Positions 3,156 to 35,776 are shown, numbered from the stretch's first letter. The stretch is DNA of 64,000 bases from a virus (IMGVR_UViG_3300047564_002155:64001-128000); one strand, 5' to 3'. A program made the numbers and translations. Notes: generated from the letters alone by a model not told the origin.

Positions 3156-3407
3156 ATGGAAGAAAACAAAAAATTCAAAAAAGTTAGAAAAGCCGAAATG
3201 GTTATTGTGGGAAAGCCCAACGCTGTGAAGGTAGTAAACAACAACATTGAAGCCGCTTTACGATTCTGGAAAAAGAATATGAAAGAAAGTGGTAAAATTG
3301 AATGGATTAAATCACATAGAGAATATGTGAAACCAACTACGGAAAAAAGAGAGCTACGAAATCAAGCACTCCGTAAAGAGTGGACACGACGCCAACAACA
3401 AGAATAA
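3156..3407 (+). CDS. rpsU: Phage-encoded ribosomal protein bS21 homologue
   Basis: VKVVNNNIEAALRFWKKNMKESGKIEWIKSHREYVKPTTEKR matches the S21 pattern (IE.ALR.FKK....G.......RE.Y.KP...R). It sits beside the capsid genes, as is known for bS21-encoding phages. Confidence 0.8.
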   Translation: MEENKKFKKVRKAEMVIVGKPNAVKVVNNNIEAALRFWKKNMKESGKIEWIKSHREYVKPTTEKRELRNQALRKEWTRRQQQE

Positions 3408-3557
3408 TAAATGGTAAACACTTTATTGTTTCAATAAAAGTTCCCATATTTATTACTAAAAATGTAGTCCCCTAATGGACTATAACTTTATTTATAATTG
3501 TATTATTAAGGTTCACGAATAACCTTATTACCCCGAAGAATAATTTAGGAGTTTAAA

Positions 3558-4565
3558 ATGGCAAAATCAGATTTGCTCAAAGAAGCTATCGCTGACGCAA
3601 AAGCCGTAAAAGAAACTGCTTTAGCTAACGCTAAGTTGGCTTTAGAAGAAGCATTTGCTCCACGAATTCAGTCTATGTTGTCTCACAAACTCGCAGAAGA
3701 ACTTGACGATGAGGAAGTTTCTGAAGAAGAGGAAGAGATGACTGCTGAAGTACCTGCAATGGAAGAAGAGGATGAAATGTCCGCTGACGCTGAAATGGGT
3801 GCTGAAGAAGATATGACTGAAGAAGAGGATGAAATGTATTCTGAAGAAGACCAAATGGGTGCTGAAGAAGAGATGGATATGGCTGCTGACTCTGATGAAG
3901 AAGGTGAAGAATACGAACTTACCGGTGATGAAGAAGAAGACACCGAAGAGGACGACCTTGACCTTGAAGCAGTAATCAGAGAATTAGAAGACGCAATGGC
4001 TTCCGATGAAGAAGAAATGGCATTTGAAGAAGATGAAATGGAAGATGAAATGACATCTGAAGAAGATGAAATGGAAGATGAAATGACATCTGAAGAAGAT
4101 GAAGAAGAACTTGACATCAACGAAATCATCCGTACCTTGAAAGAAATGGAAGGTAATGGCGAAGAAGAGATGACCGAGGAAGAAGAAGACGCTACTGAAG
4201 GTTACAAAGAAGAATTGGAAGAAGCTTATAAGACTATTCAGTCTATGAGAAAAACCATCAACGAAGTAAACTTACTTAACGCAAAACTTCTTTACACGAA
4301 CAAGTTGTTCAGAACTTTTGATTTGAACGAGTCTCAAAAAGTTAAAGTAATTGAAAACTTTGATAGAGCTTCAAACTTGAGAGAAGTAAAATTAGTATTT
4401 GCTACATTAGGTGAAAACTTAAATGTCGCTAGAAAAAAGAAAACAGTTGTTAAAGAATCACTCGCTTCTAAACCAATGAAGTCAACTGCAGCTCCTAAAA
4501 AGATTTTATCTGAAGGTGACGCAGTAGCTGAAAGATTTAAGAAGTTAGCTGGTTTGATTAAATAA
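3558..4565 (+). CDS. Prohead core scaffold protein (gp22-like)
   Basis: Very acidic centre, coiled-coil ends and AGGAG SD. Immediately upstream of the major capsid protein gene. Confidence 0.8.
   Translation: MAKSDLLKEAIADAKAVKETALANAKLALEEAFAPRIQSMLSHKLAEELDDEEVSEEEEEMTAEVPAMEEEDEMSADAEMGAEEDMTEEEDEMYSEEDQMGAEEEMDMAADSDEEGEEYELTGDEEEDTEEDDLDLEAVIRELEDAMASDEEEMAFEEDEMEDEMTSEEDEMEDEMTSEEDEEELDINEIIRTLKEMEGNGEEEMTEEEEDATEGYKEELEEAYKTIQSMRKTINEVNLLNAKLLYTNKLFRTFDLNESQKVKVIENFDRASNLREVKLVFATLGENLNVARKKKTVVKESLASKPMKSTAAPKKILSEGDAVAERFKKLAGLIK
4025..4103 (+). repeat. 33-bp tandem repeat (about 2.4 copies) encoding EEDEMEDEMTS
   Basis: tgaagaagatgaaatggaagatgaaatgacatc at 4025 and 4058, with a partial copy at 4091. 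Confidence 0.85.
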
Positions 4566-4595
4566 TAAAAAACCAAAAAAGAAAAAAGGATTAAA

Positions 4596-6245
4596 ATGAA
4601 AGTAAATAACATTTTAGCTGAATCTGCTGGTTTCAACAAGAGAATGTCTGAAGAGACTAAAGGTATCGTATCTAAATGGGCTAAAACTGGTCTTTTAGAA
4701 GGTTTATCTTCAGATTTTGAAAAGTCAGGAATGGCTACTCTACTTGAAAACCAAGCAAAGCAATTAGTATCTGAAGCATCTGCTACAGGTACATCGGCAA
4801 ACTCTGAAGAGTGGAGCGGTGTCGCTTTACCTTTGGTACGCCGTATCTTCTCTGAAATCGCAGCGAAAGAATTCGTTTCGGTTCAACCTATGAACTTACC
4901 TTCGGGTCTTGTATTCTACTTGGACTTCAAGTATGGTACAGGTCAACCAGGTTTCACTACTGGTTCTGGTAAAAACTCACAAGCTGATTCAGTATTCGGT
5001 ATCACCGAAACTGGTTCAAATGCTACTGGTGGTCTTTACGGAGACGGTCGTTTCGGTTACACTATCAATGAAACTCAATCTGCTGCGTTAGGTTATGGTT
5101 CACTTGGTGCTAGTAACGTAGCTACTAGCTCATTAAGCGAATCAGACTACAACTTTGACACCGCGTGGTCAGCATCAGTTTACGTTAACTACCCAGGTAT
5201 TTCTGGTGGTGTATCTATCCACACTTTGAGCGTATCTGCGTCTTCAATCAGCGGATTTGATTCAAATGGTGTTAAGGCGTTCCAACCAGTTGGTGATGCT
5301 GTAACTGCTTACTACCCACAATTCACTACTTACAACTCTACAACTGAAGTTGTCAAGTTTGTTGTATTGGGTGATGTTGACAATGGTGACACTGTTGTTA
5401 TCAAGTACCAAAAGCAACCAACTGATATCACTCGTGGTGACTTTGAACAATCAACTTCAGGTTTCGCTGCAAACCCAGAAACCGATTTAGGTATTCCTGA
5501 ATTGAACGTAGAGCTTCGTTCTATTCCAATCGTTGCTAAGACTCGTAAGTTGAAGGCACAATGGACTCCAGAATTCGCTCAAGACTTGAACGCATACCAC
5601 TCAATTGACGCTGAAGCTGAATTAACCTCAATGTTGTCAGAGTACATCTCACAAGAAATTGACCTTGAAATCTTGGATATGTTACAACAAAACGCATTGA
5701 CTACTGGTCACTGGTCGGCTAAAGTTGGTTACGAGTGGAATGGTTCATCATTCGCTCAATCTGCGGCTAACTACACTGCATACATCCAAGGTACTTGGTT
5801 TGCTACATTAGGTACTGTTCTTCAGAGAGTATCTAACCAAATCCACGCTAAGACTATGAGAGGTGGAGCAAACTTCTTGGTAGTATCTCCTGATGTTGCA
5901 ACTATCCTTGAGTCTATTCCAGGATACACCGCAAATGGTACAGGTGAAGCAATGCAGTTCGCAATGGGCGTATCTCAAGTAGGTTCATTCGCTAACCGCT
6001 ACACTGTTTACAAGAACCCATACATGCAATCAAATATGATTCTTATGGGCTTCAAAGGTGCTCAATTCCTTGAGACTGGTGCTGTTTACGCTCCATACAT
6101 CCCATTGATTATGACTCCTCTTGTGTACGACCCGAAAAACTTCCAACCTCGTAAGGGTGTAATGACTCGTTACGCGAAGGAAATGATTCGTGGTGAGTTC
6201 TACGGTAAAGTATTCGTTCACGGTCTTGAGACTGTTGGACAATAA
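4596..6245 (+). CDS. Major capsid protein (T4 gp23-like)
   Basis: Motifs VQPMNLPSGLVFYL, AKTRKLKAQWTPEFAQDLNAYH, YAPYIPL and FQPRKGVMTRY. Confidence 0.96.
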   Translation: MKVNNILAESAGFNKRMSEETKGIVSKWAKTGLLEGLSSDFEKSGMATLLENQAKQLVSEASATGTSANSEEWSGVALPLVRRIFSEIAAKEFVSVQPMNLPSGLVFYLDFKYGTGQPGFTTGSGKNSQADSVFGITETGSNATGGLYGDGRFGYTINETQSAALGYGSLGASNVATSSLSESDYNFDTAWSASVYVNYPGISGGVSIHTLSVSASSISGFDSNGVKAFQPVGDAVTAYYPQFTTYNSTTEVVKFVVLGDVDNGDTVVIKYQKQPTDITRGDFEQSTSGFAANPETDLGIPELNVELRSIPIVAKTRKLKAQWTPEFAQDLNAYHSIDAEAELTSMLSEYISQEIDLEILDMLQQNALTTGHWSAKVGYEWNGSSFAQSAANYTAYIQGTWFATLGTVLQRVSNQIHAKTMRGGANFLVVSPDVATILESIPGYTANGTGEAMQFAMGVSQVGSFANRYTVYKNPYMQSNMILMGFKGAQFLETGAVYAPYIPLIMTPLVYDPKNFQPRKGVMTRYAKEMIRGEFYGKVFVHGLETVGQ

Positions 6246-6270
6246 TAATCGTTAGAACAACGAGTAATCT

Positions 6271-6298
6271 AAAGGGGGTCTTCGGACCCCCTTTTTTT
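6271..6298 (+). terminator. Rho-independent terminator with C(UUCG)G loop
   Basis: gggggtc-ttcg-gaccccc followed by a T run, after the capsid gene. Confidence 0.92.
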
Positions 6299-6358
6299 AT
6301 TATACCCAAGATACTTATACTAAAGGTTTTATAATAATAATTTATCTATAAAGGGTTT

Positions 6359-7015
6359 ATGGAGAATACGGAAAAACGAGTTCCAAAAGGTGATATTAAA
6401 TTTTCAATTAATTTATCCGATGAACAAAAACACGCAAAATCACAAATCCTTGAACATCCATTTAATTTTATTTTAGGAAAAGCTGGTAGTGGTAAAACCC
6501 TACTCGCAGTTCAGATTGCATTGGATTTGTATTTCAAAAGAGAAATCAACAAAATTGTTATCACGAGACCTACTGTATCTAATGAGGACAATGGATTTTT
6601 ACCTGGTTCTTTGGAAGAAAAAATGGAACCTTGGTTAGTACCAATCCGTTCTAATATGAAAAAGGTATACGATAAGTGGATTGTCCTTGAAAAAATGGAA
6701 AAAGAAGAAAACATTGAATTGGTTTCTTTAACACATTTTCGTGGTAGAACTTTTGATAATTGTGTATGTATAGTAGATGAGTTTCAAAACTTAACTAAAA
6801 CACAATTAGCAATGGTATTGGGTAGATTGGGTAAGGGGTCTCGTATGATTCTTACAGGTGACGCTCAACAAATTGATTTAAAGTTTTCAAACGATTCAGC
6901 AGTACACGATGTTGCTAAATTAAAAGAATCAAGATTTGTATACACGGTTAATTTAAAAGATAATCACCGACACGAAGCTCTTGATGAAGTTTTAAGACTA
7001 TTATATTCTTTCTAA
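6359..7015 (+). CDS. phoH: PhoH-family ATPase
   Basis: GKAGSGKT Walker A, plus RP, GFLPG, RGRTF, DEFQN and GDAQQID motifs. Confidence 0.93.
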   Translation: MENTEKRVPKGDIKFSINLSDEQKHAKSQILEHPFNFILGKAGSGKTLLAVQIALDLYFKREINKIVITRPTVSNEDNGFLPGSLEEKMEPWLVPIRSNMKKVYDKWIVLEKMEKEENIELVSLTHFRGRTFDNCVCIVDEFQNLTKTQLAMVLGRLGKGSRMILTGDAQQIDLKFSNDSAVHDVAKLKESRFVYTVNLKDNHRHEALDEVLRLLYSF

Positions 7016-7084
7016 TAAGTTATGTTTAATCTCTAACTATTTATTGATTAGAGATACTATTTTATTAAGAGTTGGAGAACTTGT

Positions 7085-10450: not shown

Positions 10451-10465
10451 TTTTTGGAGTAAAAA

Positions 10466-12958: not shown

Positions 12959-12967
12959 TATTTATTC

Positions 12968-12985
12968 TTGATATCAAAAAAGTTT
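12968..12985. repeat. 18-bp direct repeat, copy 1 (TTGATATCAAAAAAGTTT)
   Basis: Identical to 14047-14064 and contains the palindrome TTGATATCAA. Confidence 0.85.
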
Positions 12986-13018
12986 CGTTAATGCATTAAC
13001 AAAAATGGAGAACTAAAA

Positions 13019-14044: not shown

Positions 14045-14046
14045 TA

Positions 14047-14064
14047 TTGATATCAAAAAAGTTT
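14047..14064. repeat. 18-bp direct repeat, copy 2
   Basis: Identical to 12968-12985. Confidence 0.85.
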
Positions 14065-14360: not shown

Positions 14361-14377
14361 CAATAAAGGATGGGGAT

Positions 14378-16540: not shown

Positions 16541-16584
16541 TAATTAAACAATCTGTTTGGAAAGTGAAAAACGGAAGGAACTAA

Positions 16585-17199: not shown

Positions 17200-17219
17200 T
17201 TATTCTAAAGGATAAAAAA

Positions 17220-20200
17220 ATGAGTTTGATACACGCATTACACGAAGATACTTTGTTAGAGGTTAATGGAATACTAACCCCTATCAAGGATATCCAAATT
17301 GGCGATGTAGTAAAAAGTTACAATACTGAAGCCCAAACTATCGGTGAAAGTAAGGTTGTTTCTAAACACATCGGTTTTGATAGTGAATACTACCACATAA
17401 ATTTTAGTGATGGTTCACAATTAAAAACATCCATCAAATCACTTTTCTATTCACAAGATGGTGAATGGTTAACTCCTTTAGATGTATACCACTTAAAAAA
17501 ATCACTCCTTAACGGATTAGAAATCACCTCACTAAAATTAGTTGATGGTGATATTTCTTTTATTAGTATTGAAGTAGAACCCGACCACAACTATTTTGTA
17601 GGTAATCTATTAGTACACAACACAGGTCCTACGGGTCCTACGGGTCCTACTGGAGCTCAAGGTCCTAAAGGTCCCACCGGCTCTACCGGTTCAACGGGCC
17701 CTACCGGCGGTACTGGTCCTCAAGGTCCTATTGGCCCTAAAGGTCCAACCGGACCCGCTTCATCACCTCAAGGTGCTCAAGGTCCAAAAGGTCCTATGGG
17801 TAACTCACCACAAGGTCCAACGGGTCCTACTGGCCCAACAGGTCCTACCGGCCCAACTGGTCCTACTGGAGCTCAAGGTCCCAAAGGACCAACGGGTCCA
17901 ACTGGTCCTACTGGTCCACAAGGTCCAACAGGTCCAACGGGACCAACCGGCCCTACGGGGTCTTCACCACAAGGTCCTGCTGGTCCAAAGGGACCTACGG
18001 GTCCTACTGGCGCAACTGGCCCAACGGGTCCTACTGGTCCTACTGGCGCTAAAGGACCACAAGGTCCTACGGGTCCAACCGGTGGCACGGGTCCAAAAGG
18101 ACCACAAGGTCCTACGGGTCCAACAGGTCCAACAGGTCCTACTGGCCCTACTGGTGCAAAAGGACCACAAGGTCCTACTGGCCCACAAGGTAACCAAGGG
18201 CCAGTTGGCCCATCACCTCAAGGAGCTCAAGGTCCTAATGGACCAACAGGTCCAACCGGCCCTAAAGGACCAACGGGACCAACAGGCCCCACTGGTGCAA
18301 AAGGTCCACAAGGAGGAACAGGTCCTACTGGCCCAACCGGTGGTCAAGGTGCTACTGGCGCTCAAGGTTTCCAAGGACCAACCGGTCCTACCGGACCTAC
18401 TGGCGCAAAGGGTCCACAAGGACCCACTGGTCCACAAGGTAACCAAGGTCCTTCAGGTTCTTCACCCCAAGGTGCTCAAGGTCCAAAAGGACCAACCGGT
18501 CCAACTGGCGCTCAAGGTCCTGTTGGACCAACGGGTCCTACTGGACCAAAAGGACCTCAAGGTCCCACAGGTCCCACAGGCCCAACAGGAAACCAAGGTC
18601 CGATTGGACCAAAGGGTCCGCAGGGGCCAACGGGTGGAACTGGCCCTCAAGGTGGAGTAGGTCCTCAAGGTCCAAAGGGCGACCAAGGTAATTCACCACA
18701 AGGTGCACAAGGTCCGATAGGACCACAAGGAGCTAAAGGACCTGCGGGTTCTTCACCTAAAGGAGACCAAGGTCCACAAGGTGCTCAAGGTCCTAAAGGT
18801 CCCCAAGGAGCTAACCCACAAGGAGACCAAGGACCACAAGGTCCACAAGGTCCTAAAGGACCAACCGGGTCTTCACCTCAAGGAGCTCAAGGTCCTAAAG
18901 GACCACAAGGTCCACAAGGTAACCAAGGACCCGCACCTCAAGGTGACCAAGGTCCTAAAGGCCCACAAGGTCCACAAGGTAATCAAGGACCCGCACCTCA
19001 AGGTGACCAAGGTCCTAAAGGTCCACAAGGTCCACAAGGACAACAAGGACCTGCGCCACAAGGTGACCAAGGTCCTAAAGGTCCACAAGGTGCTCAAGGT
19101 CCGATGGGTAATTCACCTCAAGGACCACAAGGTGCAAAAGGACCACAAGGTGATAAAGGTAATACGGGCTCTTCGCCCAAAGGTGACCAAGGACCACAAG
19201 GCGCTCAAGGTCCTAAAGGTCCTCAAGGAGCTAACCCACAAGGTGACCAAGGACCACAAGGTCCACAAGGTCCTAAAGGTCCTACTGGCTCTTCACCGCA
19301 AGGTGCTCAAGGTCCTAAAGGTCCACAAGGTCCACAAGGTCAACAAGGACCCGCACCTCAAGGTGACCAAGGTCCTAAAGGCCCACAAGGTCCACAAGGT
19401 AATCAAGGACCCGCACCTCAAGGTGACCAAGGTCCTAAAGGACCACAAGGACCACAAGGACAACAAGGTCCAGCGCCTCAAGGTGACCAAGGTCCTAAAG
19501 GTCCACAAGGGCCAAAGGGTGACCAAGGTAATTCACCTCAAGGTGCTCAAGGTCCAACAGGTGCTCAAGGTGATAAAGGTAATACAGGGTCTTCACCTAA
19601 AGGAGACCAAGGTCCACAAGGTGCTCAAGGTCCTAAAGGCCCTCAAGGAGCTAACCCACAAGGTGACCAAGGTCCACAAGGCCCACAAGGTCCTAAAGGT
19701 CCTACTGGGTCTTCACCACAAGGCGCTCAAGGTCCTAAAGGTCCTCAAGGTGATAAAGGTCCAACTGGGTCTTCACCGCAAGGTGCTCAAGGTCCTAAAG
19801 GACCACAAGGTCCACAAGGTAACCAAGGTCCTGCTCCTCAAGGTGACCAAGGTCCTAAAGGTCCTCAAGGCGCTCAAGGTAATCAAGGACCGCAAGGTCC
19901 AATTGGACCTCAAGGTCCTAAAGGCCCTCAAGGTCCTAAAGGTCCTCAAGGAGACAAGGGTCCTCAAGGAGCTGCTCCTCAAGGTGACCAAGGTCCACAG
20001 GGACCAAAGGGTGACCAAGGTAATTCACCTCAAGGCGCTCAAGGTCCTAAAGGTCCTCAAGGAGACAAAGGACCACAGGGTGCGGCACCTCAAGGTGCTC
20101 AAGGTCCTAAAGGTCCACAGGGGGATAAAGGACCACAAGGTTCAATAGGTAACCAAGGAGACCAAGGTCCACAAGGTCCGCAAGGACCAAAGGGTGATGC

Positions 20201-21311
20201 TGGAACCTCACCACAAGGTGCTCAAGGTCCTAAAGGTCCTCAAGGAGACAAAGGTCCTCAAGGAGCTTCACCACAAGGAGCTCAAGGTCCACAAGGTGTT
20301 AAAGGACCACAAGGTCCTAAAGGAACTTCACCTCAAGGTGACCAAGGTCCACAAGGTGCTCAAGGTCCTAAAGGTCCTCAAGGTGATTCACCACAAGGAG
20401 ACCAAGGACCACAAGGTCCTAAAGGAGACCAAGGTAATTCACCTCAAGGTGCTCAAGGTCCTATTGGGGCTCAAGGTCCTAAAGGTCCTCAAGGAGACAA
20501 AGGTCCTCAAGGTGCAAAAGGTCCTCAAGGAGACAAAGGTCCTCAAGGAGACAAGGGTCCTCAAGGAGCTAATCCACAAGGTGACCAAGGTCCACAAGGT
20601 GAAAAAGGACCACAGGGGGATAAGGGAACCTCACCACAAGGTGCTCAAGGTCCTAAAGGTCCTCAAGGAGACAAAGGTCCTCAAGGAGCTTCACCACAAG
20701 GAGCGCAAGGCCCACAAGGTGTTAAAGGACCACAAGGTCCTAAAGGAACTTCACCTCAAGGTGACCAAGGTCCACAAGGTGCTCAAGGTCCTAAAGGTCC
20801 TCAAGGTGATTCACCACAAGGAGACCAAGGACCACAAGGTCCTAAAGGAGACCAAGGTAATTCACCTCAAGGTGCTCAAGGTCCTATTGGGGCTCAAGGT
20901 CCTAAAGGTCCTCAAGGAGACAAAGGTCCTCAAGGTGCAAAAGGTCCTCAAGGAGACAAAGGTCCTCAAGGAGACAAGGGTCCTCAAGGAGCTAATCCAC
21001 AAGGTGACCAAGGTCCTCAAGGACCACAAGGTGCTCAAGGTCCTAAAGGAACGTCACCACAAGGTCCACAAGGAGCTAAAGGTCCTCAAGGTCCTAAAGG
21101 AACTTCACCTCAAGGTGCTCAAGGACCACAAGGTCCTCAAGGAGACAAAGGTCCTCAAGGAGACAAAGGTCAAAAGGGAGAGGCTGCTCTTGGAACTTTA
21201 ATTAGTGGTGTATCACCAGGATTAACTTGGAACGGGTCTCGTGGATTTTTAAGTTTCAATAATGGTGGTGCTACATATGTAATTCATATGTATGTAAGTG
21301 GTTCATTCTAA
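17220..21311 (+). CDS. Collagen-like protein 1 with N-terminal Hint (intein-like) domain
   Basis: Residues 6-134 (ALHEDTLL...[11 protein letters not shown]...[17 protein letters not shown]) are followed by about 1190 aa of Gly-X-Y and a short C-terminal domain ending YVSGSF. Confidence 0.9.
18740..21020 (+). repeat. Higher-order tandem duplications in collagen 1 (60-, 420- and 423-bp periods)
   Basis: Blocks recur at 18751, 19171 and 19591 (420 bp) and at 20202 and 20625 (423 bp). 60-bp units occur at 18901, 18961 and 19021. Confidence 0.85.
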
Positions 21312-21334
21312 TCCAAAAATAAAGAAGTTCTCTT

Positions 21335-24300
21335 ATGAGTGTTAAAAACGGACAATTAGTCAGATTATATGATGGAAGTGAAACCGCTATTGAAAATCTC
21401 ATTAGTGGTTCTTCCATTGTAGCTGGTGTTGCTTTACCTGGACTTGGATTGGGTGAAACTGATTATAAAACTTGGTCTTCTACTGATATATCATCCACGA
21501 CATTACAACCCGCAAATGTTGTAACAAGAAATACTTTCATCAATTCAGCTATTGAAAAAATTGAATTTAACGATGGTAATCTTGTCGTATCACCAATGCA
21601 AGAAATCCTTGTAAAAGGTGGTGATAATGTATATCTTTTTAAAAGAGCAAAAGATGTAGTCTTAAATTCAGACCATTTAGTAAAATGGAATGGTTCTTCA
21701 CTTGTAGATGAACTAATTACTGAAGCTTATACCATAGACCCGGAAGACGCTTCAAACCTAAACATTGAAGACCTTGATGTTTACCTTGTAAATGGGTATG
21801 TAGTTCACAACGCAGGGACTTCTTATTTTACATCAGATTGTTTAACTTCAGATAATCTTGGTTGTGGTAACTGGCCTAATTTTGATCCTGGCTCATACTC
21901 CAACACTTGTTATTATGTATCGGGTGCTCCTGGAACTGATTGTGCTTATACTTGTGCCACTTGTGAAGAGATTGAATTTGATGCAAACTCCGATGGTGAA
22001 CCTTGTGGTTCTAATAATGAGTGTGACGCAGATACATCACAAGGTCCAACAGGTCCAACAGGTCCTCAAGGTGCAGTCGGTCCTAAAGGTGATAATGGGC
22101 CAACTGGTGGAACGGGCCCGACCGGTCCTCAAGGTGCTGTGGGTCCAATCGGCCCTACGGGTGATACTCCTGACGCACTAACGGGTCCTCAAGGTCCCGT
22201 AGGTCCAAAAGGACCATCGGGTAATTTGGGACCACAAGGTCCCACGGGACCAACAGGTCCAACGGGTGGACAAGGTGGGCAAGGTTCTCAAGGTGCTGTG
22301 GGGCCTGTGGGAGATTCTCCAACCGGAGGACAAGGTAACCAAGGACCTGTTGGTCCTACTGGCCCAACGGGGCCCGCAGGAGCATTAGGTCCGGTAGGAC
22401 CTATCGGACCAACCGGCGACCAAGGACCCACCGGACCAACCGGCCCAACGGGCGCTTCACCCACTGGCCCAGGTGGTGACCAAGGTCCAACGGGCGGAAC
22501 GGGTCCAACCGGTCCTGGTGGAGACCAAGGTCCAACAGGCCCAACAGGTGCAACGGGTGCTTCACCCACTGGTGGTGGTGGTGACCAAGGTCCTGTGGGA
22601 CCTCAAGGGCCAAAAGGACCTTCGGGTAATTTAGGAGCTCAAGGACCTGTTGGCCCAACCGGCCCAACTGGTCCTGTTGGACCTACTGGCGATACAGGTG
22701 CCTCACCAACCGGTCCAGGCGGTGACCAAGGACCCACCGGCCCTACGGGTCCTACGGGCCCCACTGGCGATAGAGGTCCACAAGGTCCTATGGGACCAAC
22801 GGGTGCTTCCCCAACAGGTGGTGGTGGAGACCAAGGACCAACAGGCGCTCAAGGACCTGTTGGTGGAACTCCAGGTCCTGGTGCAGCGGGTCCAATAGGA
22901 CCAGGTGGCGACCAAGGTTCACAAGGTCCTCAAGGTCCAATTGGGGCTTCCCCAACAGGTGGTGGTGGAGACCAAGGACCTCAAGGAGGTCAAGGTTCGC
23001 AAGGACCTACTGGAGATATTGGTGTTGGTGGCGACCAAGGTCCAACTGGCGGACAAGGTAATCAAGGTCCACAAGGATTACAAGGTCCAAAAGGACCTTC
23101 GGGTAATTTAGGTCCTCAAGGACCAATAGGACCTACCGGAGCTGGTGGACCTGCTGGGGATAATGCTCCTAAAGGCGCTCAAGGAGACCAAGGAAATACA
23201 GGTCCTATTGGACCCACCGGTGATGCTGGCCCCAAAGGAGCTCAAGGTGCTCAAGGAAATCAAGGAAATCAAGGTCCAACTGGTGATGCTGCTTTAACAG
23301 GTCCTCAAGGACCAATTGGAGGTGGGGGTGACCAAGGTCCTCAAGGACCTGCAGGAGCAAAAGGTGCTCAAGGTCCAGTTGGTGGTCAAGGAGACCAAGG
23401 CCCTCAAGGACCCGCTGGTCCTAAAGGTGCTCAAGGACCAATTGGAGGTGGAGGTAACCAAGGTCCTCAAGGACCTGCTGGCGGTAAGGGTGCTCAAGGT
23501 CCAATTGGCGGTCAAGGAGACCAAGGTCCTATGGGACCTTCGGGTAATTTAGGCGCTCAAGGACCAATGGGTCCTAAAGGTGACCAAGGTCCAACTGGTG
23601 ATGCAGCCCCAAAAGGTGCTCAAGGAGACCAAGGAAATACAGGTCCTATTGGACCCACCGGTGATGCTGGCCCCAAAGGAGCTCAAGGTGCTCAAGGAAA
23701 TCAAGGTAACCAAGGTCCAACAGGTGATGCTGCTTTAACAGGTCCTCAAGGACCTGTGGGTGTGAAGGGTGACCAAGGTCCTCAAGGACCTGCTGGAGGT
23801 AAAGGCTCTCAAGGTCCTATTGGTGGACAAGGAGACCAAGGTCCTCAAGGGCCTGCTGGGGCTAAAGGTGCCCAAGGTCCAACAGGCGCTGGTGGTGACC
23901 AAGGTCCTCAAGGACCTGCTGGTGGTAAAGGTGCTCAAGGTCCTATTGGTGGGCAAGGCGACCAAGGTCCTAAAGGACCATCGGGTAATTTAGGCCCCCA
24001 AGGTCCAACGGGTGTAAAAGGTAATCAAGGTCCAACCGGCGATGCTGCTGCTAAAGGTGCTCAAGGGGACCAAGGAAATACAGGTCCTATTGGTCCAACT
24101 GGCGATGCTGGTCCTAAAGGTGCTCAAGGTGCTCAAGGTAACCAAGGTAACCAAGGACCAACCGGCGATGCTGCATTAACAGGCGCTCAAGGTCCTATGG
24201 GACCTAAAGGTGACCAGGGTCCAGTGGGTACACCCGCCGAAACCGGGGCTCAAGGTCCTGTTGGCGTAAAAGGTGACCAAGGTCCTCAAGGGCCTGCTGG

Positions 24301-25918
24301 GGCTAAAGGTGCTCAAGGACCTGTTGGTGGACAAGGTGACCAAGGTCCTCAAGGACCACAAAGTGTAGCTACCGAAGGTGGTGATGGATATACTGGTGGA
24401 CCACAAGGTGCTGTTGGTCCAACGGGTGACCAAGGACCTAAAGGTGATGTGGGTCAAAAAGGTGATGATGGTCCTAAAGGGGCTCAAGGTCCTCAAGGAT
24501 TACAAGGTCCTAAAGGTCCTTCGGGAAATTTAGGAGCTCAAGGTCCTGTTGGTGTAAAGGGTGATACTGGTCAAAAAGGTGATGATGGTCCTAAAGGAGA
24601 CCAAGGACCAACTGGTGTTAAGGGAGACCAAGGACCTGCAGGAGAACAAGGACCTAAAGGACCTCAAGGAGCTCAAGGTAATCAGGGTAGACAAGGACCA
24701 ACCGGAGATGCTGCTCTAACAGGCGCTGCTGGTCCAATTGGACCCAAAGGTGACCAAGGTCAAAAAGGTGATGATGGTCCTAAAGGCGCTCAAGGTCCTC
24801 AAGGTAGAGTAGGCCCGCAAGGAGACCAAGGTGATGCTTTTGACGCTTTAACACCACAAGGACCTCAAGGAAATATAGGACCTGTTGGAGTTAAAGGTGA
24901 TGCTGGTCCTAAAGGCGCTCAAGGTCCTCAAGGACTTCAAGGTCAAAAAGGACCATCTGGAAACACGGGCGCTCAAGGACCTCAAGGACCACAAAGTGAT
25001 AAGGGTTCTACGATTGGACCTAAAGGGGACCAAGGATTTTCAGGCGATTATGAAGACACTGCGCCTAAAGGTGACCAAGGTCAAAAGGGTGACCAGGGTC
25101 AAAAGGGGGCTGATGGTCCAAAGGGTGCTCAAGGGGCTCAAGGATTTCAAGGTCCCAAAGGTGACCAAGGACCCACCAATTTAACAGGCCCACAAGGTGC
25201 TGTTGGTGTAAAAGGTGATGTTGGTGTAAAAGGTGATGATGGTCCTAAAGGCGCTCAAGGTCCTCAAGGTAGAGTAGGTCCGCAAGGTGACCAAGGTGAT
25301 GCTTTTGACGCTTTAACCCCACAAGGACCTCAAGGAAATGTAGGACCTGTTGGAGTTAAAGGTGATGCTGGTCCCAAAGGAGCTCAAGGTCCTCAAGGAT
25401 TACAAGGTCCAAAAGGACCGTCTGGAAACGCCGGTGCTCAAGGACCTCAAGGACCACAAAGTGATAAGGGTTCTACCATCGGTCCTAAAGGAGACCAAGG
25501 ATTTTCAGGCGATTATGAAGACACTGCACCCAAAGGCGATGTTGGACCTCAAGGTGACCAAGGTCAAAAGGGGGCTGATGGTCCTAAAGGAGCTCAAGGT
25601 GCCGCGGGAAATCAAGGACCACAAGGTGGCCAAGGAACATCCGCATTATCGGGCGCTGAAGGTGCTGTTGGACCACAAGGTGAACAAGGACCAACGGGAG
25701 ATTCTCCAACTGCTGAACAAAATGGACCACAAGGAGCACAAGGTATAGCTCCGGGTCCTAAAGGTGATTTTGGTCAAAAAGGTGAAAAGGGAAGTCAACT
25801 TGAAGGTGGTTACTTTGAGTGGAGTGATACTGATAATAAACTATACTTTAAAGAGTATGGTTGGACTGCCGGTGATAGATTATTTGTTGTAGAATTATAC
25901 AGGTCAGGTTCATTTTAA
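21335..25918 (+). CDS. Collagen-like protein 2 with N-terminal Hint domain and Cys-rich linker
   Basis: Residues 2-159 ([21 protein letters not shown]...[14 protein letters not shown]) are followed by an 8-Cys segment, a long Gly-X-Y region and a C-terminus ending YRSGSF. Confidence 0.9.
23080..25600 (+). repeat. Higher-order tandem duplications in collagen 2 (441- and 465-bp periods)
   Basis: Blocks recur at 23171, 23612 and 24053 (441 bp) and at 24781 and 25246 (465 bp). Confidence 0.85.
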
Positions 25919-25932
25919 TACATTCAATTCCA

Positions 25933-25940
25933 TATTTATA
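25933..25940 (+). promoter_or_regulatory. Putative phage late promoter TATTTAT(A/T), representative copy
   Basis: The same motif occurs at about 3129, 3447, 7038, 14283, 29602, 32175, 32509, 34918, 35503, 36888 and 46717, each shortly before a gene start. Confidence 0.7.
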
Positions 25941-25966
25941 ATAAAGTTTAAAAAATAAGTTTTGTT

Positions 25967-26572
25967 ATGGAAAAGAAATTTATATTCAATCAAGACCCAT
26001 CACGATTTTCAGCTGACCATACCAATTATTATTGGTTTCAAAATGGATTTACTGCTGAAGAATTGGCTACGATTGAACAAATGACTTCCAATTTACCATT
26101 TGAAGCCGCGGGCGTTGGTGAGTTGGATAAATCACGAGTAGAAAGCGAATATCGTAAATCATCAATTAAATGGTGTCCTCAAAACGAAGAGTGGGAATGG
26201 GTTTACGATAAGCTTGGAACTATGATTTCTGAAGCAAACAACAATATGTGGAAATTTGATTTGACTCATATGAGAGAACAAATCCAATATACTGAATACT
26301 ACGAAGGTGGTGGTCAGTATGACTGGCATATGGATTGTGGTATTGGTATTCAAGCCCAACGCAAAGTTTCGGTTACTGTTCAATTATCACAACCTGATGA
26401 ATACGAGGGTGGTGATTTACAATTTATGTTAGGTGCTGGTCAGATTTGGGCTCCACGAGTTCAAGGGGCTGCTGTTATTTTCCCATCATTTTTCTTACAC
26501 CGAGTTACGCCTGTAACCAAGGGGACTCGTAAGTCATTTGTTCTTTGGGTTGGTGGAGAACCATATAGATAA
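25967..26572 (+). CDS. 2OG-Fe(II) oxygenase (prolyl hydroxylase/PKHD-like)
   Basis: HxD (WHMD), RKVSVTVQLS..EYEGGDL, and HRVTPVTKGTRKS with the distal His and Arg. Confidence 0.9.
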   Translation: MEKKFIFNQDPSRFSADHTNYYWFQNGFTAEELATIEQMTSNLPFEAAGVGELDKSRVESEYRKSSIKWCPQNEEWEWVYDKLGTMISEANNNMWKFDLTHMREQIQYTEYYEGGGQYDWHMDCGIGIQAQRKVSVTVQLSQPDEYEGGDLQFMLGAGQIWAPRVQGAAVIFPSFFLHRVTPVTKGTRKSFVLWVGGEPYR

Positions 26573-26575
26573 TCT

Positions 26576-27874
26576 ATGAGAAAAACTAAATTACCATCTG
26601 CATTAGTTTATGGGTGGGATAAGTTTGGTGAATTCTCCATCCCATCTACACTATCAGAACACGAAGGACTTGTAGAAGATGTAGTGATTTTCTCTTGCGA
26701 AGACCATTTTAATTTTTATGTTGATTTTTCAAAATATCAGCCAGATGTAATTATTACATTTGGTGATAAAAATCAATATGAATCTATTTTAGAAGCTTCT
26801 GATGAAAACCTTGTAAATACAAAGTGGACTCACATTGATGAAATTTTAAGTGATGAGGAGCTTGCAAATAAAGTAGATGAATTGTCTACCTATTGGAGTT
26901 GTGGTTCAAATCAAAATGTTTTTGGTTCTAAAGACCTACCATTCTTTTCAGCATTTACCGGAACTTACAAAACCGGTGATAGAATTTTCAGAACCTATAA
27001 TGGTCTAAAAAATCAAACTTATAAAAATTGGGAATGGGTTGTTATTGATGACTCGCCTGAAGATGATTTTGATACTTGGAATAAACTACAAGAAATCGCA
27101 TCCCGAGACCATAGAGTAAAAATTCATAGAATTACACCAAATACGGGCGGTAATGTTGGTGAGGTTAAACACCGAGCTGCTATGTTATGTAATGGTGATT
27201 GGTTATTGGAGTATGACCATGATGATGTGATTGCATCAACATACTTTGAAGAGTGTGTCAAAGCATCAAAGCAATATCCTGATGCTGGATTTATTTTTAC
27301 CGGATGTGCTGAACTTTACGAAGATGGTAAACACAAACAATATGGTCCAATTGACCCAACGGGTTATGGTAGATATGGTTTTAATAACTACACTTGGGCT
27401 TATTCGTGGCACGAATGGGTGGAAATTGATGGTAAAAAATATATTGGAGGATTTGCTCCAAGTATAAATCCAAAAACTATTAGATATAATATGGGTATGC
27501 CAAATCACGCACGAATGTGGCATAGAGATGTGTATCATAAAGTCAGAGGTCACAATAGATATATTTCCGTAGCAGATGATTTTGAACTGATTGTAAAAAC
27601 ATTCCTAACAACACGAATGTTAAAAATTGATAAAATCCTATATATGCAATGGAATAATTATTCAAGCACTGTTGATATGAACTTAACTGATATTAATAGA
27701 AGAGCACGAATAATTAGAAATTACTATGATAAAGCTATTCACGAGCGAATCCTTGAACTTGGAAAAGAAGATTGGGATTGGGATGAAGAAACTCAAAAAT
27801 GCCATCACGCTTGGTGGATAGATAGAAGTAGATATTTTGAAAAAGAACAAGTTTTAAATTACACGATAAAATAA
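26576..27874 (+). CDS. Glycosyltransferase family 2 (GT-A)
   Basis: NQTYKNWEWVVIDDS, GDWLLEYDHDD (DxD) and ADDFEL motifs. Confidence 0.88.
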   Translation: MRKTKLPSALVYGWDKFGEFSIPSTLSEHEGLVEDVVIFSCEDHFNFYVDFSKYQPDVIITFGDKNQYESILEASDENLVNTKWTHIDEILSDEELANKVDELSTYWSCGSNQNVFGSKDLPFFSAFTGTYKTGDRIFRTYNGLKNQTYKNWEWVVIDDSPEDDFDTWNKLQEIASRDHRVKIHRITPNTGGNVGEVKHRAAMLCNGDWLLEYDHDDVIASTYFEECVKASKQYPDAGFIFTGCAELYEDGKHKQYGPIDPTGYGRYGFNNYTWAYSWHEWVEIDGKKYIGGFAPSINPKTIRYNMGMPNHARMWHRDVYHKVRGHNRYISVADDFELIVKTFLTTRMLKIDKILYMQWNNYSSTVDMNLTDINRRARIIRNYYDKAIHERILELGKEDWDWDEETQKCHHAWWIDRSRYFEKEQVLNYTIK

Positions 27875-27882
27875 GGAACAAT

Positions 27883-29595
27883 ATGAAAGTTTTGTTTGTA
27901 GTTGGATATCAGAAAACCCCATTTAATCCTTTTGTTTGGATTAAAGAAGGAATTGGTGGTTCTGAATACGCTGTTATAAAATTAGCTCATCAAATGTCAA
28001 AGCAGGGTGATGAGGTTGTTGTCACAGGTCAAGTTGTTCCGTGTGAAGTTGAGGGTATTAAGTATATACCATATGAATCCCTTGGAACAAATCAACATTA
28101 TGATGTTGTAATTGCTACAAATTATATTCACTATATTAATGAACTTGACTCACGAGAAATAACTTTTGACAAATCTTATTTTTGGATTCATAATAATGAA
28201 TATTACGCATATTGGAATGGTCAAATATTAGAGGATTTTGGAAAAGAACATTTACAAAATTCAAGGATGACTAATGTGATTGCAGTATCGGATTACTCCG
28301 CAAAAATACTTGAAGAAAAGTATACTGAAATGGTGGGAAAGGTCAGAGTTATTCCAAACGCTATTGACCCAACTGACTGGAATGGTATCCGATTTGATAA
28401 CAAACGAAAAAACAAATTTGTATATACATCCGCTGCTGATAGAGGTTTAAAAAACCTACTTGAAATCTGGCCGCAGATTCGTGACGCCAGACCCGAAGCG
28501 ACTCTTTGGGTAGCAAGTCCACCATACGCATTAGATTGGTATGAAGACTATAAGGGATTCTATGATGGTGTTCATTTTGTGGATAATCTACCACCAAGAG
28601 AATTATATGAGTTGATTGCTTCATCGGAGTATTGGGTATATCCATCACAATACGATGAAACCTATTGTATTACAGCATTGGAAATGATGATGGGTGAGGT
28701 TTCAATCATAACAACCGATACCGGAAATTTAGCAAGTATCATTCCAGCGCGAGGTGCTGTGGTATCTTCTGAAAGTGATGTTGAAACTTTAAAAAAACAA
28801 ATTTTAGAAAAACTTGAATTTGTAGAATCGGATGCTGCTTTTAGAAAGTTTTCAAAAGAAAATGCTAAATCTTTTGTTCTAAAACAAACTTGGGAAAATG
28901 TAGAAAAAATTTGGAGAAATCTTATGAACGAAACACAACCCAACCGACAAGAACAAACTGATATGTTAGCTTTACATCCTGAATTATATTCTTACAAATA
29001 TGACAAAATTGGATGGTTGGAACGATTTGTAACCTATGATGCGAGAATTAGAGAATGGGATTTGATTTCAGATGAACAATTTGATGGATGTTTTACATTT
29101 CCATTATTTACTGAAGAATTTTGTAAGATGATTCGTGAAGAGGCAGAACATTCAAAAAAATGGACTTACAAAAGACACGAATATTATCCAACCACGGATA
29201 TGCTATTATCTGAATTGGGATTGAATGAAATTTACTATGAAGTTCTCCAAACCTATGTAATGCAATTTATGATTCACAAATTTGGTTTAGAAGGTAGGGG
29301 ATGGGATTCTTTAAATTCTGAAAACTTTTTAGCAAGATACACACCAGACACTCAAGGTCATCTTTCAATACACCACGACTCTTCTGATTTAACTTGTTTA
29401 GTCCAACTATCAGACCTTGATGAATATGAAGGTGGTGGAACTTGGTTTTGGAGACAAAAAAAATTAATAAAAGGTGGAATCGGATATTGTACGGTACATC
29501 CTGGAAATATAACTCACAAGCACGGAGCAAGACCTGTAAGTAAGGGAAGTCGTTATATTATTGTATCGTTTATGAAAAATTTGGAAAGATATTAA
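27883..29595 (+). CDS. Fusion of a GT-B glycosyltransferase and a procollagen lysyl hydroxylase (PLOD)-like 2OG-Fe(II) domain
   Basis: N-terminal GT4-like motifs: GIGGSE, IPNAID, YPSQYDETYCITALE. C-terminal PLOD-like domain: FPLFTEEFC...YPTTD...FLARYTPDTQGHLSIHHDSS...YEGGG...HPGNITHKHG...GSRYIIVSF. Confidence 0.85.
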   Translation: MKVLFVVGYQKTPFNPFVWIKEGIGGSEYAVIKLAHQMSKQGDEVVVTGQVVPCEVEGIKYIPYESLGTNQHYDVVIATNYIHYINELDSREITFDKSYFWIHNNEYYAYWNGQILEDFGKEHLQNSRMTNVIAVSDYSAKILEEKYTEMVGKVRVIPNAIDPTDWNGIRFDNKRKNKFVYTSAADRGLKNLLEIWPQIRDARPEATLWVASPPYALDWYEDYKGFYDGVHFVDNLPPRELYELIASSEYWVYPSQYDETYCITALEMMMGEVSIITTDTGNLASIIPARGAVVSSESDVETLKKQILEKLEFVESDAAFRKFSKENAKSFVLKQTWENVEKIWRNLMNETQPNRQEQTDMLALHPELYSYKYDKIGWLERFVTYDARIREWDLISDEQFDGCFTFPLFTEEFCKMIREEAEHSKKWTYKRHEYYPTTDMLLSELGLNEIYYEVLQTYVMQFMIHKFGLEGRGWDSLNSENFLARYTPDTQGHLSIHHDSSDLTCLVQLSDLDEYEGGGTWFWRQKKLIKGGIGYCTVHPGNITHKHGARPVSKGSRYIIVSFMKNLERY

Positions 29596-29634
29596 CCATA
29601 CTATTTATATATTGAGGTATAAAAAGGAGAGTTA

Positions 29635-30831: not shown

Positions 30832-30835
30832 TCCA

Positions 30836-31366
30836 ATGGCGTTATTTGGTGGTCAGAGAGATATGTCTTTGTTTAGAACATTAAACAAGGAACTTATCAA
30901 TGATATTATTGATACTGAAGTTTATTTTTTTAAATTCGCTATAAGTGAAACAAAAAACAATTTATACGGAGAAAGTAAAAATAAACAATATTACAATCCT
31001 GTAAAAATTCCGTGTCTAATAGAGTACAATACCCTTGAACAAATTTCAGATGAGTTTGGTCAGTATTATTCAAGAAATGTTGAATTTAGATTTCTTCGTG
31101 ATACTTTAAAAGATGACAAAGATATACATCCGGATGTGGGTGATATTGTTGAATGGAATCACGAATATTTCCAAATTGATTCGGTAGCAGAATCTCAATT
31201 ATTTGCAGGTAAGAATCCAGATACTTGGGATGGTGGTGAAAGTCAAGGTTATTCAATATCATTTATATGTGCTGCACATATGACACGACAATCTACTATT
31301 AATTTAGTTGATAACCGATTTGGTAATTCTAATAACACAACTAATACAATACCGGTGGGAATTTAA
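30836..31366 (+). CDS. Neck/head-closure protein (gp14-like)
   Basis: NLYGES and PDVGDIV motifs, and synteny. Confidence 0.65.
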   Translation: MALFGGQRDMSLFRTLNKELINDIIDTEVYFFKFAISETKNNLYGESKNKQYYNPVKIPCLIEYNTLEQISDEFGQYYSRNVEFRFLRDTLKDDKDIHPDVGDIVEWNHEYFQIDSVAESQLFAGKNPDTWDGGESQGYSISFICAAHMTRQSTINLVDNRFGNSNNTTNTIPVGI

Positions 31367-32169: not shown

Positions 32170-32203
32170 TTCTATATTTATACTATATTAAAGAGATTTT
32201 ATT

Positions 32204-32482
32204 ATGGAAAAAACAGTTATATCACTTACCGAAGAAGAAGTAACAAAGATAAATGTGTTACAATCGGGTATCTTACAATCACTTGCTAGATTAGGCGAAA
32301 TTGAAATAGAGAAGCTTGAACTTGAGAGTGTTTATAAGTCTTTGAACGAAGAAACCGACCAACTCATAAGTCGTTACAACACTTTAAAAGAAAATGAAGG
32401 AAAACTCGCACAAGAATTAAAACAAAAGTATGGCGAGGGTGGGGTAGATTTAGAAAACAATACTTTCGTTCCTAAACAATAA
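32204..32482 (+). CDS. Hypothetical coiled-coil protein
   Basis: ORF with a late-type promoter motif and the C-terminus KYGEGGVDLENNTFVP. Confidence 0.6.
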   Translation: MEKTVISLTEEEVTKINVLQSGILQSLARLGEIEIEKLELESVYKSLNEETDQLISRYNTLKENEGKLAQELKQKYGEGGVDLENNTFVPKQ

Positions 32483-32557
32483 TTATTGTGTTTCCCTAAT
32501 TTTCTTGGTATTTATTAGTAAGGAAAATTCCAAAAATAGAACATTAGGAGAAAAATA

Positions 32558-34903: not shown

Positions 34904-34946
34904 TTTGAAGAATGATATATTTATAAGAAAGATTAGGAGAATTTAA

Positions 34947-35435
34947 ATGGCAAATTTACTCACACCGCAGGAGATAATGTTTACGAACTTTGAACCTAAA
35001 ATGTCAAACAGGTTCATTATGTATATTGAAGGAATTCCAGCATATCTCATCAAAGCGGCTAACCGCCCTGAAATTCAGAATGGTAAAGTGACTATTGACC
35101 ATATCAACACTCGTAGATATGTAAAAGGTCGTTCTGAATGGCAAGATTTAACCATCAGTTTGTATGACGCAGTTGTTCCATCTGCGGCTCAAGCTGTAAT
35201 GGAGTGGGTTCGTTTGACTCACGAATCGGTAACAGGTCGTGATGGTTATTCAGATTTCTACAAAAAAGACATCGTGTTTAACTCATTAGGTCCGGTTGGT
35301 GATAAAGTTGAAGAATGGACATTGAAAGGTGCTTTTATTCAGACTGCAAAATTTTCTGATATGGATTACACCGGTGAAGATTTGGCTACTGTAGATTTAA
35401 CATTGACTTACGATTACGCTATCTTACAATACTAA
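34947..35435 (+). CDS. Tail tube protein (gp19-like)
   Basis: Follows the sheath gene and contains WQDLTISLYD, YKKDI and EEWTLKGAF. Confidence 0.88.
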   Translation: MANLLTPQEIMFTNFEPKMSNRFIMYIEGIPAYLIKAANRPEIQNGKVTIDHINTRRYVKGRSEWQDLTISLYDAVVPSAAQAVMEWVRLTHESVTGRDGYSDFYKKDIVFNSLGPVGDKVEEWTLKGAFIQTAKFSDMDYTGEDLATVDLTLTYDYAILQY

Positions 35436-35454
35436 TTTAGGATTGAAAAATGAG

Positions 35455-35480
35455 AAACCCCACTTCGGTGGGGTTTTTTT
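35455..35480 (+). terminator. Rho-independent terminator with C(UUCG)G loop
   Basis: aaaccccac-ttcg-gtggggttt followed by a T run. Confidence 0.92.
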
Positions 35481-35536
35481 GTTTTAAAAAGTTTTATTTT
35501 GATATTTATACATAGTTTAATTAAACGGAGACTAAA

Positions 35537-35776
35537 ATGATTAATATCGTTAGAAACAGAGATACCAAAATCGTATATGCTGTTGTAGGTGAGGGTAATT
35601 TGGTTATTACCGAAGGTACTACTACATATGATGGTGATATTTTTACAATTGATTCAGAATTTCCATATACTTGGGAATTTGGATATGAATGTGTTCAAGC
35701 AGAAGTTGAAGTACCTGAAGAATGGCACGGTTCAAAATACATTTTTGATAATGGAACTTGGACACTTGTAGTATAA
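35537..35776 (+). CDS. Hypothetical protein
   Basis: ORF with a GGAG SD and an upstream TATTTATA. Confidence 0.6.
   Translation: MINIVRNRDTKIVYAVVGEGNLVITEGTTTYDGDIFTIDSEFPYTWEFGYECVQAEVEVPEEWHGSKYIFDNGTWTLVV

Follow-up and report, generated by a model that had tools for sequence, protein, structure and literature searches.

The 64,000-nucleotide stretch of viral DNA analysed here (the window) comprises bases 64001-128000 of a 168,128-bp IMG/VR virus record (IMGVR_UViG_3300047564_002155) with an estimated completeness of 94%; positions refer to the window unless marked 'genome', which denotes the numbering of the whole record. Our subject is a gene for ribosomal protein bS21 in the head module of this virus and its relation to the Shine-Dalgarno (SD) motifs that precede the viral late genes. 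A preliminary description of the window had proposed that the phage bS21 replaces the host protein, frees the anti-SD and biases translation towards virion mRNAs. By its gene layout, assigned from PHROG matches, the virus is a T4-like myovirus and the window is the central part of its 168-kb genome (Table 1). Almost all genes lie on the + strand. The left arm carries small genes and ten tRNAs, the baseplate block begins at genome 29.6 kb, and TerL, portal and prohead protease are encoded directly upstream of the window. Within the window, the bS21 gene stands ahead of a further head-module gene and the major capsid gene, which is followed by PhoH, large virion proteins and the tail module, and finally by a replication and nucleotide-metabolism module; DNA polymerase belongs to the same replication arm, past the end of the window. 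A megablast search of the window against GenBank phages did not find a close relative.

The product of the bS21 gene reaches 35.3 bits with PF01165 (cut-off 27), covering profile positions 2-53 of 55, and 38.2 bits with TIGR00030 (cut-off 28.95). Judged by these two profiles it is a true bS21, and this identification, already made in the preliminary description, holds. Its best matches in the PDB are chains from S. aureus, Pseudomonas and E. coli, while the Flavobacterium johnsoniae protein (7JIL_z) matches more weakly (16.8 bits as compared to ~22 bits for bS21 of E. coli or S. aureus). A tblastn search with the 83 residues against GenBank phages returned no match; a homologue search returned near-identical bS21 only, and an exhaustive search of representatives yielded 76 bS21 proteins, mostly phage-like. 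For comparison with hosts, 30 bS21 proteins from Bacteroidia genomes were aligned with the phage protein. The latter starts with a basic N-terminal extension, encoded by the first 19 codons (3156-3212) and carrying a net charge of +5, which is missing from 30/30 host proteins; Bacteroidia-type bS21 is a short protein that begins at the first beta-strand (M-I-I-V-P-V-K). Tyr54, found in 29/30 Bacteroidia proteins, is replaced by Arg73 (3372-3374) in the phage, and Trp76 (3381-3383) occupies column 57, that is three residues or one helical turn further on. As regards the C-terminal part, which in Bacteroidia-type bS21 is less basic than in other phyla, residues beyond Pro41 sum to a net charge of +3 both in the phage protein and in the host median, and the medians of related phage proteins are +5 to +6. 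No SD is present ahead of either candidate start of the phage gene.

To score translation signals, 183 genes were called without regard to SD motifs as the longest open reading frames (ORFs), with the start nearest the preceding stop; two ORFs overlapping tRNAs (genome 12107 and 13248) were left out of the gene set. An SD was counted when AGGA, GGAG or GAGG ended 4-11 nt before the start. Late blocks were delimited by annotation alone (TerL to baseplate hub; baseplate block; endolysin and surface genes), and the replication/metabolism arm plus the left arm made up the early set. Across the whole genome, SDs precede 27 of 48 late genes (56%) as compared to 9 of the 98 genes in the early set (Fisher p = 1.9e-9), which bears out the earlier view of the SD as a late-gene feature. 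Inside the window, 14 of the 22 genes in the span covered by the preliminary description bear one, as opposed to 5 of 23 in 44516-64000 (p = 0.007). The motif was found at 4% of internal ATG decoys and 5% of random positions. All ten SD sites that the preliminary description had named are present, at most 1 nt away from where it had placed them, and genes 44586, 44874, 45094, 48852, 49623 and 60337 as well as the bS21 gene (3156) indeed have no AGGA, GGAG or GAGG at 4-11 nt spacing.

The starts of the SD motifs cluster between -12 and -9; over positions -11 to -8, late genes have a G frequency of 0.35-0.54 and early genes one of 0.17-0.22. In early genes, the frequency of A is raised at positions -12 and -13 (0.60 and 0.51, respectively), which are among the positions important for SD-independent initiation in F. 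johnsoniae (PMC13000457). The late SDs are short (4-6 nt), mostly AAGGA, AGGA, GGAG or AGGAG; GGAGG never occurs. The strongest sites belong to abundant virion proteins, with AGGAG at head gene 3558, the sheath and the tube (and also at the endolysin) and AAGGA at the capsid gene, while TerL, portal, fibre 2 and bS21 are late genes without SD. Being complementary to the 16S 3' tail (CCUCCU core), correctly spaced and enriched, the late purine motifs qualify as SD sequences; the pairing itself is predicted, with an estimated duplex energy of about -5 to -9 kcal/mol. In the replication block, SDs precede both ribonucleotide reductase (RNR) subunit genes (53786 and 55096) and genes 48368, 57889 and 62633. 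The RNR subunits thus bear SDs (GGAG and AGGA, respectively) inside an SD-poor module, and both may be expressed or needed late.

Early and late genes also differ in their upstream motifs. Sigma-A promoters of Bacteroidota combine a -33 TTTG with a -7 TAnnTTTG. About a dozen intergenic copies of this host-type arrangement (TTTG-N19-TAnnTTTG; long consensus TTTGGATAATTCAAAATAATTTCGTATATTTG) are present in the phage, and these copies, of the form TTTGG...N...CGTATATTTG, all stand ahead of early or replication genes. A strict pattern, TTG-N17-21-TAnnTTTG, was dropped: it was unspecific in AT-rich DNA, matched the minus strand and was nearly absent from the related Flavobacterium phage vB_FspM_immuto. 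Another motif, TATTTAT[AT], is strongly strand-biased: over the whole genome, 36 copies were counted on the + strand as compared to 7 on the - strand, and 25 of the former fall into non-coding DNA, which makes up 4% of the genome. The motif stands ahead of the capsid operon and of the genes for adaptor, sheath, tube, portal and other virion proteins, and we regard it as a putative late promoter. One copy, TATTTATT, lies 19 nt upstream of the bS21 ATG, which fits the earlier proposal that bS21 is expressed late. The late promoter of phage T4, TATAAATA, is an AT-rich, -10-like element; TATTTAT[AT] is not the T4 sequence, but reads as the reverse complement of TATAAATA on the coding strand. It is shared with phage immuto. 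The SDs of the adaptor-like, sheath and tube genes and of gene 35537 are located 21-41 nt downstream of such a motif (29602, 32509, 34918 and 35503, respectively). Since the distance to the start codon varies between 14 and 61 nt for TATTTAT[AT], whereas that of the SD is fixed, the purine motifs are best taken as ribosome-binding sites rather than as part of the promoter. At a few genes a promoter box lies only 1-5 nt from the start codon, either a host-type -7 box, TATATTTG, or a late-type box, TATTTATA (window 45481-45495; genome 130295-130309, 135800-135815 and 165770-165781; similarly window 36888-36902 and 46717-46730); the mRNAs of these genes are probably leaderless or near-leaderless.

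As the preliminary description had assumed, the host very probably is a member of the Bacteroidota and probably belongs to the Flavobacteriales. This assignment relies on the host-type promoters, on a type IX secretion system (T9SS) sorting domain, on the binning of RNR-bearing contigs and on a cultured relative that infects Flavobacterium. For the promoters, the argument rests on the long intergenic consensus, given that the strict pattern proved too unspecific. The sorting domain (PF18962, Por_Secre_tail; 40.5 bits, cut-off 27) forms the C-terminus of the protein encoded at genome 154810-156729. RNR-bearing contigs with 75-83% protein identity were binned mostly in metagenome-assembled genomes of Flavobacteriales or Bacteroidia. 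Among relatives whose host is verified, phage immuto is the nearest (53% capsid identity). A slightly closer one (57% capsid identity), likewise with bS21 in the head module, is deposited as Microcystis phage Mel-JY01 (GenBank PP395634). Its early region contains about ten Bacteroidota-type promoters (TTGCATAC...TTTCGTAAATTTGTA), which leads us to doubt the host label; the true host may be a member of the Bacteroidota living in the Microcystis culture. In 23 of 55 early genes of Mel-JY01, an ACAGGAA motif occurs at SD spacing. Applied to the sampled Bacteroidia genomes, our SD measure gave 4%, a value that confirms the host baseline as well as the measure.

Among related phages, bS21 carriage and SD-rich late genes co-occur near-perfectly, an observation that goes beyond what the preliminary description could see. 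Capsid proteins of the family were used in four scans of IMG/VR, which together with two GenBank genomes provided 213 distinct capsid sequences, and 158 of the corresponding loci were assessable, that is had at least 7 genes and an upstream flank sufficient to judge bS21. With SD-high defined as SDs on at least 30% of the head-region genes, 85 bS21-positive loci were SD-high and 4 SD-low, while 3 bS21-negative loci were SD-high and 66 SD-low, leaving 7 exceptions. In the pooled head-region genes, SDs were present on 702 of 1519 (46%) in bS21-positive as compared to 81 of 1044 (8%) in bS21-negative loci, and for the capsid gene the counts were 39/43 and 8/53, respectively. The capsid tree contains 15 maximal clades that are uniform in bS21 state, and their SD fractions do not overlap: the six negative clades range from 0 to 18% and the nine positive ones from 22 to 64%. 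Negative, SD-poor clades adjoin positive, SD-rich ones at several places of the tree, as exemplified by L115 and L257-259 (0-10%) beside the Mel-JY01 clade (38-60%). In a clade of fragments (L099-L129, with L104, L111, L118, L125 and L128), no bS21 was found within the sequenced pieces; the capsid SD is kept and overall SD content is 10-27%. This clade may have lost bS21 recently, or the gene may lie outside the fragments.

Absence of bS21 is certain in two complete genomes, immuto and G053, the latter with terminal repeats. Phage immuto, which is in culture, has SDs on 1 of 46 late and 4 of 82 early genes, and G053 on 0 of 26 late homologues; both retain the TATTTATA motif ahead of late genes. 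By comparison, G049, an independent bS21-positive genome that is complete, bears SDs on 21 of 38 late homologues versus 3 of 49 early genes (p = 4e-7), and G052 on 11 of 27 late versus 4 of 34 early genes.

The family also shares features in bS21 and its gene. Position 54 is Arg or Lys in 31 of the phage proteins (23 of these with Trp or Tyr at position 57) and Tyr or Phe in 23. Positions 23-26 are changed in all of them, from F-E-K-T in hosts to V/M/L-K-D/E-S, with K24 present in 96%, and nearly all carry a basic N-terminal extension (median, 20 residues). The features common to the phage proteins therefore sit in the N-terminal part, in agreement with Chen et al. (PMC9723584), who noted divergence at the N-terminus. 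The genes themselves are nearly SD-free (3/53, or 6/53 if any start is allowed), while their neighbours reach 46%. In many Flavobacteriales the opposite has been reported, namely an rpsU gene with an extended SD; of the 30 rpsU genes sampled here from Bacteroidia, just two have one.

How might bS21 and the SDs be connected? In Bacteroidia, the clade-specific Tyr54 of bS21 forms a stack with A1534 and directs the anti-SD into a pocket formed by bS18 and bS6 (Jha et al., Arpin et al.; PMC7797042, PMC13000457). Ribosomes of F. johnsoniae that lack bS21 or have a weakened pocket expose a free anti-SD and translate SD-led mRNA well and SD-less mRNA poorly, whereas wild-type ribosomes answer only to very strong SDs with pairing energies below -13 kcal/mol (PMC9976891, PMC13000457). 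The SDs of the phage are far weaker and should therefore be useless on ordinary host ribosomes. With phage bS21 expressed together with late genes, as found by Chen et al. (PMC9723584), the following course can be envisaged. Early and replication genes would be transcribed from host-type sigma-A promoters and translated by the SD-independent route of the host, while genes for virion proteins, lysis and bS21 would be served by the phage late-type promoter (TATTTATA-like). The bS21 mRNA, being devoid of an SD, could be read by ordinary host ribosomes. The phage protein would then build up late and enter the 30S subunit, either replacing host bS21 or competing with it, upon which the 16S 3' tail would shift from the sequestered to the free state. 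As a consequence, the short late SDs would become functional, favouring SD-led virion mRNAs at the expense of SD-less host mRNAs. As the simplest way to reconcile the data, we tentatively put forward that phage bS21 in this way joins the 30S subunit, frees the anti-SD and makes the late SDs work; incorporation, release and translational gain are what we infer.

The earlier mechanism is thus partly supported, and the divergent C-terminus invoked in it fares differently in its parts. Tyr54 is indeed exchanged for Arg73 in this phage, but the exchange is no common denominator, as 23 relatives keep Tyr or Phe at this position, and a Bacteroidia genome with a natural Arg54 is free of SDs. Loss of Tyr54 is hence ruled out as the general determinant of SD use. 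The C-terminal net charge equals the host median. The Bacteroidia genome (G040, locus L033) encodes an Arg54 bS21 (NRAIRRQELY) that, among the bacterial proteins sampled, matches the phage protein best. The N-terminal extension was likewise rejected as sole determinant: L078, with a short extension and few SDs, agrees with such a role, whereas SD-rich L110, without any extension, contradicts it. The bS21 gene of L078 (5894-6131) encodes a more host-like type with a 7-residue extension and Arg54, and lies ~4 kb upstream of the capsid gene rather than adjoining it.

Several observations weigh against release of the anti-SD by phage bS21. SD content is 50% in phages with Tyr/Phe54 proteins as compared to 42% in those of the Arg54 type, G040 uses SDs on only 2 of 48 genes in spite of its Arg54, and L110 reaches 58% with an unextended protein. 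Chen et al. (PMC9723584) moreover read the conserved aromatic residue as a sign that the anti-SD stays blocked. Sharing the promoter class of its presumed targets, bS21 would have no temporal head start over them. The contrast between late and early genes is weak in G051 (7/24, 29%, versus 4/27, 15%) and less late-specific in Mel-JY01 (56% late, 42% early), and bS21-positive loci with few SDs exist (L078, 1/19 genes; L300/L304, 22%). Parsimony requires only about 6 changes of bS21 state, so few independent contrasts that a paired sign test of the association could not reach significance, and several negative clades consist of fragments only, whose bS21 gene could lie off the contig.

Ribosomes that lack bS21 altogether might read the late SDs instead, their share being increased when infection shuts off or removes host bS21. 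The phage protein would in this case serve a different purpose, for instance to keep SD-less mRNAs of the phage translatable, to stabilize bS1 and uS2 on the subunit, or to blunt the autoregulation of host rpsU. Such ribosomes do exist in Bacteroidia, they favour SD-led over SD-less mRNAs, and the SD-anti-SD helix can evict bS21 (PMC13000457); McNutt et al. (PMC9976891) speculate on phage factors that remove host bS21, and phage proteins retaining Tyr54 look able to sequester the tail like the host protein. We nevertheless consider this scenario unlikely, as it leaves unexplained why SD-rich late genes are almost confined to bS21-carrying phages and why SDs are absent from bS21-free relatives including two complete genomes, and a candidate for the removing factor was not identified. 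A similarly low probability attaches to shared ancestry or a host effect, according to which bS21-positive lineages infect hosts that already read short SDs and negative ones SD-blind hosts, with no causal link between the two traits. The strong clumping of both traits on the capsid tree, with the few changes and non-significant paired tests mentioned above, speaks for it, as does the deposition of one bS21-positive member as a Microcystis phage whose early genes are AGGA-rich, too. On an SD-reading host, however, one would not expect the early genes of bS21-positive genomes to be SD-poor (6-12%); the phage studied here has Bacteroidota-type promoters and a T9SS sorting domain, the 'Microcystis' phage has the same promoters, and the sister-clade contrasts recur at several places of the tree.

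Following the model of Chen et al., phage bS21 could alternatively keep the anti-SD blocked and select phage mRNAs through its altered N-terminal helix, with the SD-like motifs being recognized otherwise or freed by another phage factor. The residues common to all family members, which lie at positions 23-26 in the N-terminal helix and in the extension rather than in the C-terminal helix, are in line with this model, and so is the aromatic residue kept at position 54 by many members. That the motifs are complementary to the 16S 3' tail at canonical spacing, and that position 54 is Arg or Lys in this phage and 30 relatives, makes the model improbable in our view. To our knowledge, no reader of AGGAG other than the anti-SD exists. 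Least probable by far is that the purine motifs are not ribosome-binding sites at all, but mRNA processing sites, binding sites of a phage protein or part of the late promoter. They are short (4-6 nt), and many of them lie downstream of TATTTAT[AT], as this idea would have it; their fixed distance from the start (-12 to -9), as opposed to the 14-61 nt of the promoter motif, and their presence ahead of intra-operon genes without promoter motif argue for ribosome binding.

The phage resembles the bS21-encoding freshwater Bacteroidetes myoviruses described by Chen et al. (2022, ISME Commun, PMC9723584), in which bS21 is also part of the head module near TerL, portal, prohead protease and major capsid gene, a Bacteroidota host is predicted and bS21 is a late gene (expressed late in their case, read from the promoter motif in ours). 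In their proposal, host bS21 is replaced by the phage protein. In contrast to the gene studied here, which is co-directional with its neighbours, theirs are on the reverse strand, and all their proteins are aromatic at position 54, where ours has Arg73 with a Trp three residues on. Searched by terms, their text contains no look at the SD content of phage genes or at a contrast with bS21-free relatives. As in the autoregulation of F. johnsoniae rpsU (McNutt 2023, PMC9976891; Arpin 2026, PMC13000457), the bS21 status of the 30S subunit would decide on anti-SD freedom and mRNA preference. There, a single gene with an SD of 9-13 bp (< -13 kcal/mol) is regulated and the active species is the ribosome without bS21; here, short SDs stand ahead of dozens of late genes but not of the bS21 gene, and it is the ribosome with a variant bS21 that is proposed to be active. 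Phage immuto (MW353176) and uncultured relatives belong to the same family and share the syntenic head module and TATTTATA before late genes; the complete immuto genome, with no bS21 and essentially no SDs, represents a natural negative control. Alternative bS21 proteins that enter ribosomes and alter mRNA choice are exemplified by the paralogues of Francisella tularensis (PMC9578407) and by bS21 of Pelagibacter phage HTVC008M, which can assemble into E. coli ribosomes (Mizuno 2019). In these hosts, unlike here, the anti-SD is not sequestered, and the effect does not involve switching between SD-led and SD-less translation.

Table 1. Positions of genes, SD motifs and promoter motifs (window numbering unless marked 'genome').
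Feature	Position	Strand	Remark
bS21 gene	3156-3407	+	83 aa; PF01165 / TIGR00030
Head-module gene	3558-4565	+	335 aa
Major capsid gene	4596-6245	+	phrog_138, E = 2e-72
Two giant collagen-like fibre genes	17220-25918	+	1363 and 1527 aa
Tail module	29635, 32558, 34947, 35793	+	adaptor-like gene, sheath, tube, baseplate hub
Replication and nucleotide-metabolism module	44586-63751	+	PHROGs
Genes of the replication module	48852, 49623, 50752, 52370, 53786 + 55096, 58667		SSB, UvsX, exonuclease, DnaB, RNR, Mom-like
Endolysin and surface-protein genes	genome 153.9-162 kb
SD AGGAG	3547-3551	+	6 nt before ATG of gene 3558
SD AAGGA	4586-4590	+	5 nt before capsid gene 4596
SD GGAG	7074-7077	+	gene 7085
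SD GGAG	10456-10459	+	gene 10466
SD GGAG	13007-13010	+	gene 13019
SD AAGGA	14366-14370	+	gene 14378
SD AAGGA	16575-16579	+	gene 16585
SD AAGGA	17208-17212	+	collagen-like fibre 17220
SD AAGGA	27873-27877	+	gene 27883
SD AAGGAG	29624-29629	+	adaptor-like gene 29635
SD AGGAG	32546-32550	+	sheath gene 32558
SD AGGAG	34935-34939	+	tube gene 34947
SD GGAG	35527-35530	+	gene 35537
TATTTAT[AT] copy TATTTATT	3129-3136	+	upstream of bS21 gene
Putative late promoter TATTTATA	3489-3496	+	before head gene 3558
TATTTAT[AT] sites	3129, 3489, 7038, 12959, 25933, 29602, 32175, 32509, 34918, 35503, 36888, 46717
Host-type promoter TTGA...N...TATCTTTG	44524-44566	+	-7 box 44559-44566; before SD-less gene 44586
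Further host-type -7 boxes	45481-45488, 60237-60244, 60813-60820	+	first one 4 nt before GTG 45493

Among the remaining features, the collagen-like fibre genes are GC-rich, with a local GC content of up to 57% as compared to a genome average of ~37%, and 2-oxoglutarate-Fe(II) oxygenase (hydroxylase) and glycosyltransferase genes follow them (17220-29595). Upstream of the window, the early left arm contains the cluster of ten tRNAs (genome 11511-13229; Leu, Arg, Pro, Tyr, Glu, Ser, Thr, Ala, Gly and Gln). At genome 153902-161713, the endolysin gene is followed by genes for a cohesin-domain protein, which carries the T9SS sorting domain, and a C-type lectin protein; lectin and cohesin-domain proteins are likewise encoded by immuto. 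With SDs on 4 of its 5 first genes, this block behaves as late.

Among ribosomal proteins, bS21 is the commonest in phage genomes. Phage bS21 as such, its late expression, the idea of substitution and the sequestration of the anti-SD have been published (PMC9723584, PMC9976891, PMC13000457); in the literature searched, we found no paper on SD-bearing late genes of Bacteroidota phages or their link to bS21-encoding lineages, and none reporting that the phage bS21 gene is SD-less. The published substitution idea names no mRNA feature that could be selected, and short SDs restricted to late genes supply one. Taken together, our data lead us to suggest, with due reserve, that phage bS21 and SD-led late genes form a co-evolved, portable switch from an SD-blind to an SD-reading ribosome, which may raise the late regulon, depress host mRNAs and leave lineages that lose bS21 to lose their SDs as well. 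The bS21/SD pattern makes this idea directly testable with the reporters, strains and cryo-electron microscopy already at hand for F. johnsoniae. If true, it would represent a clear example from nature of a virus that re-specifies which mRNAs the ribosome chooses, and would provide an SD-dependent expression switch for Bacteroidota genetics. It could also help to explain why Bacteroidia have kept a canonical anti-SD.

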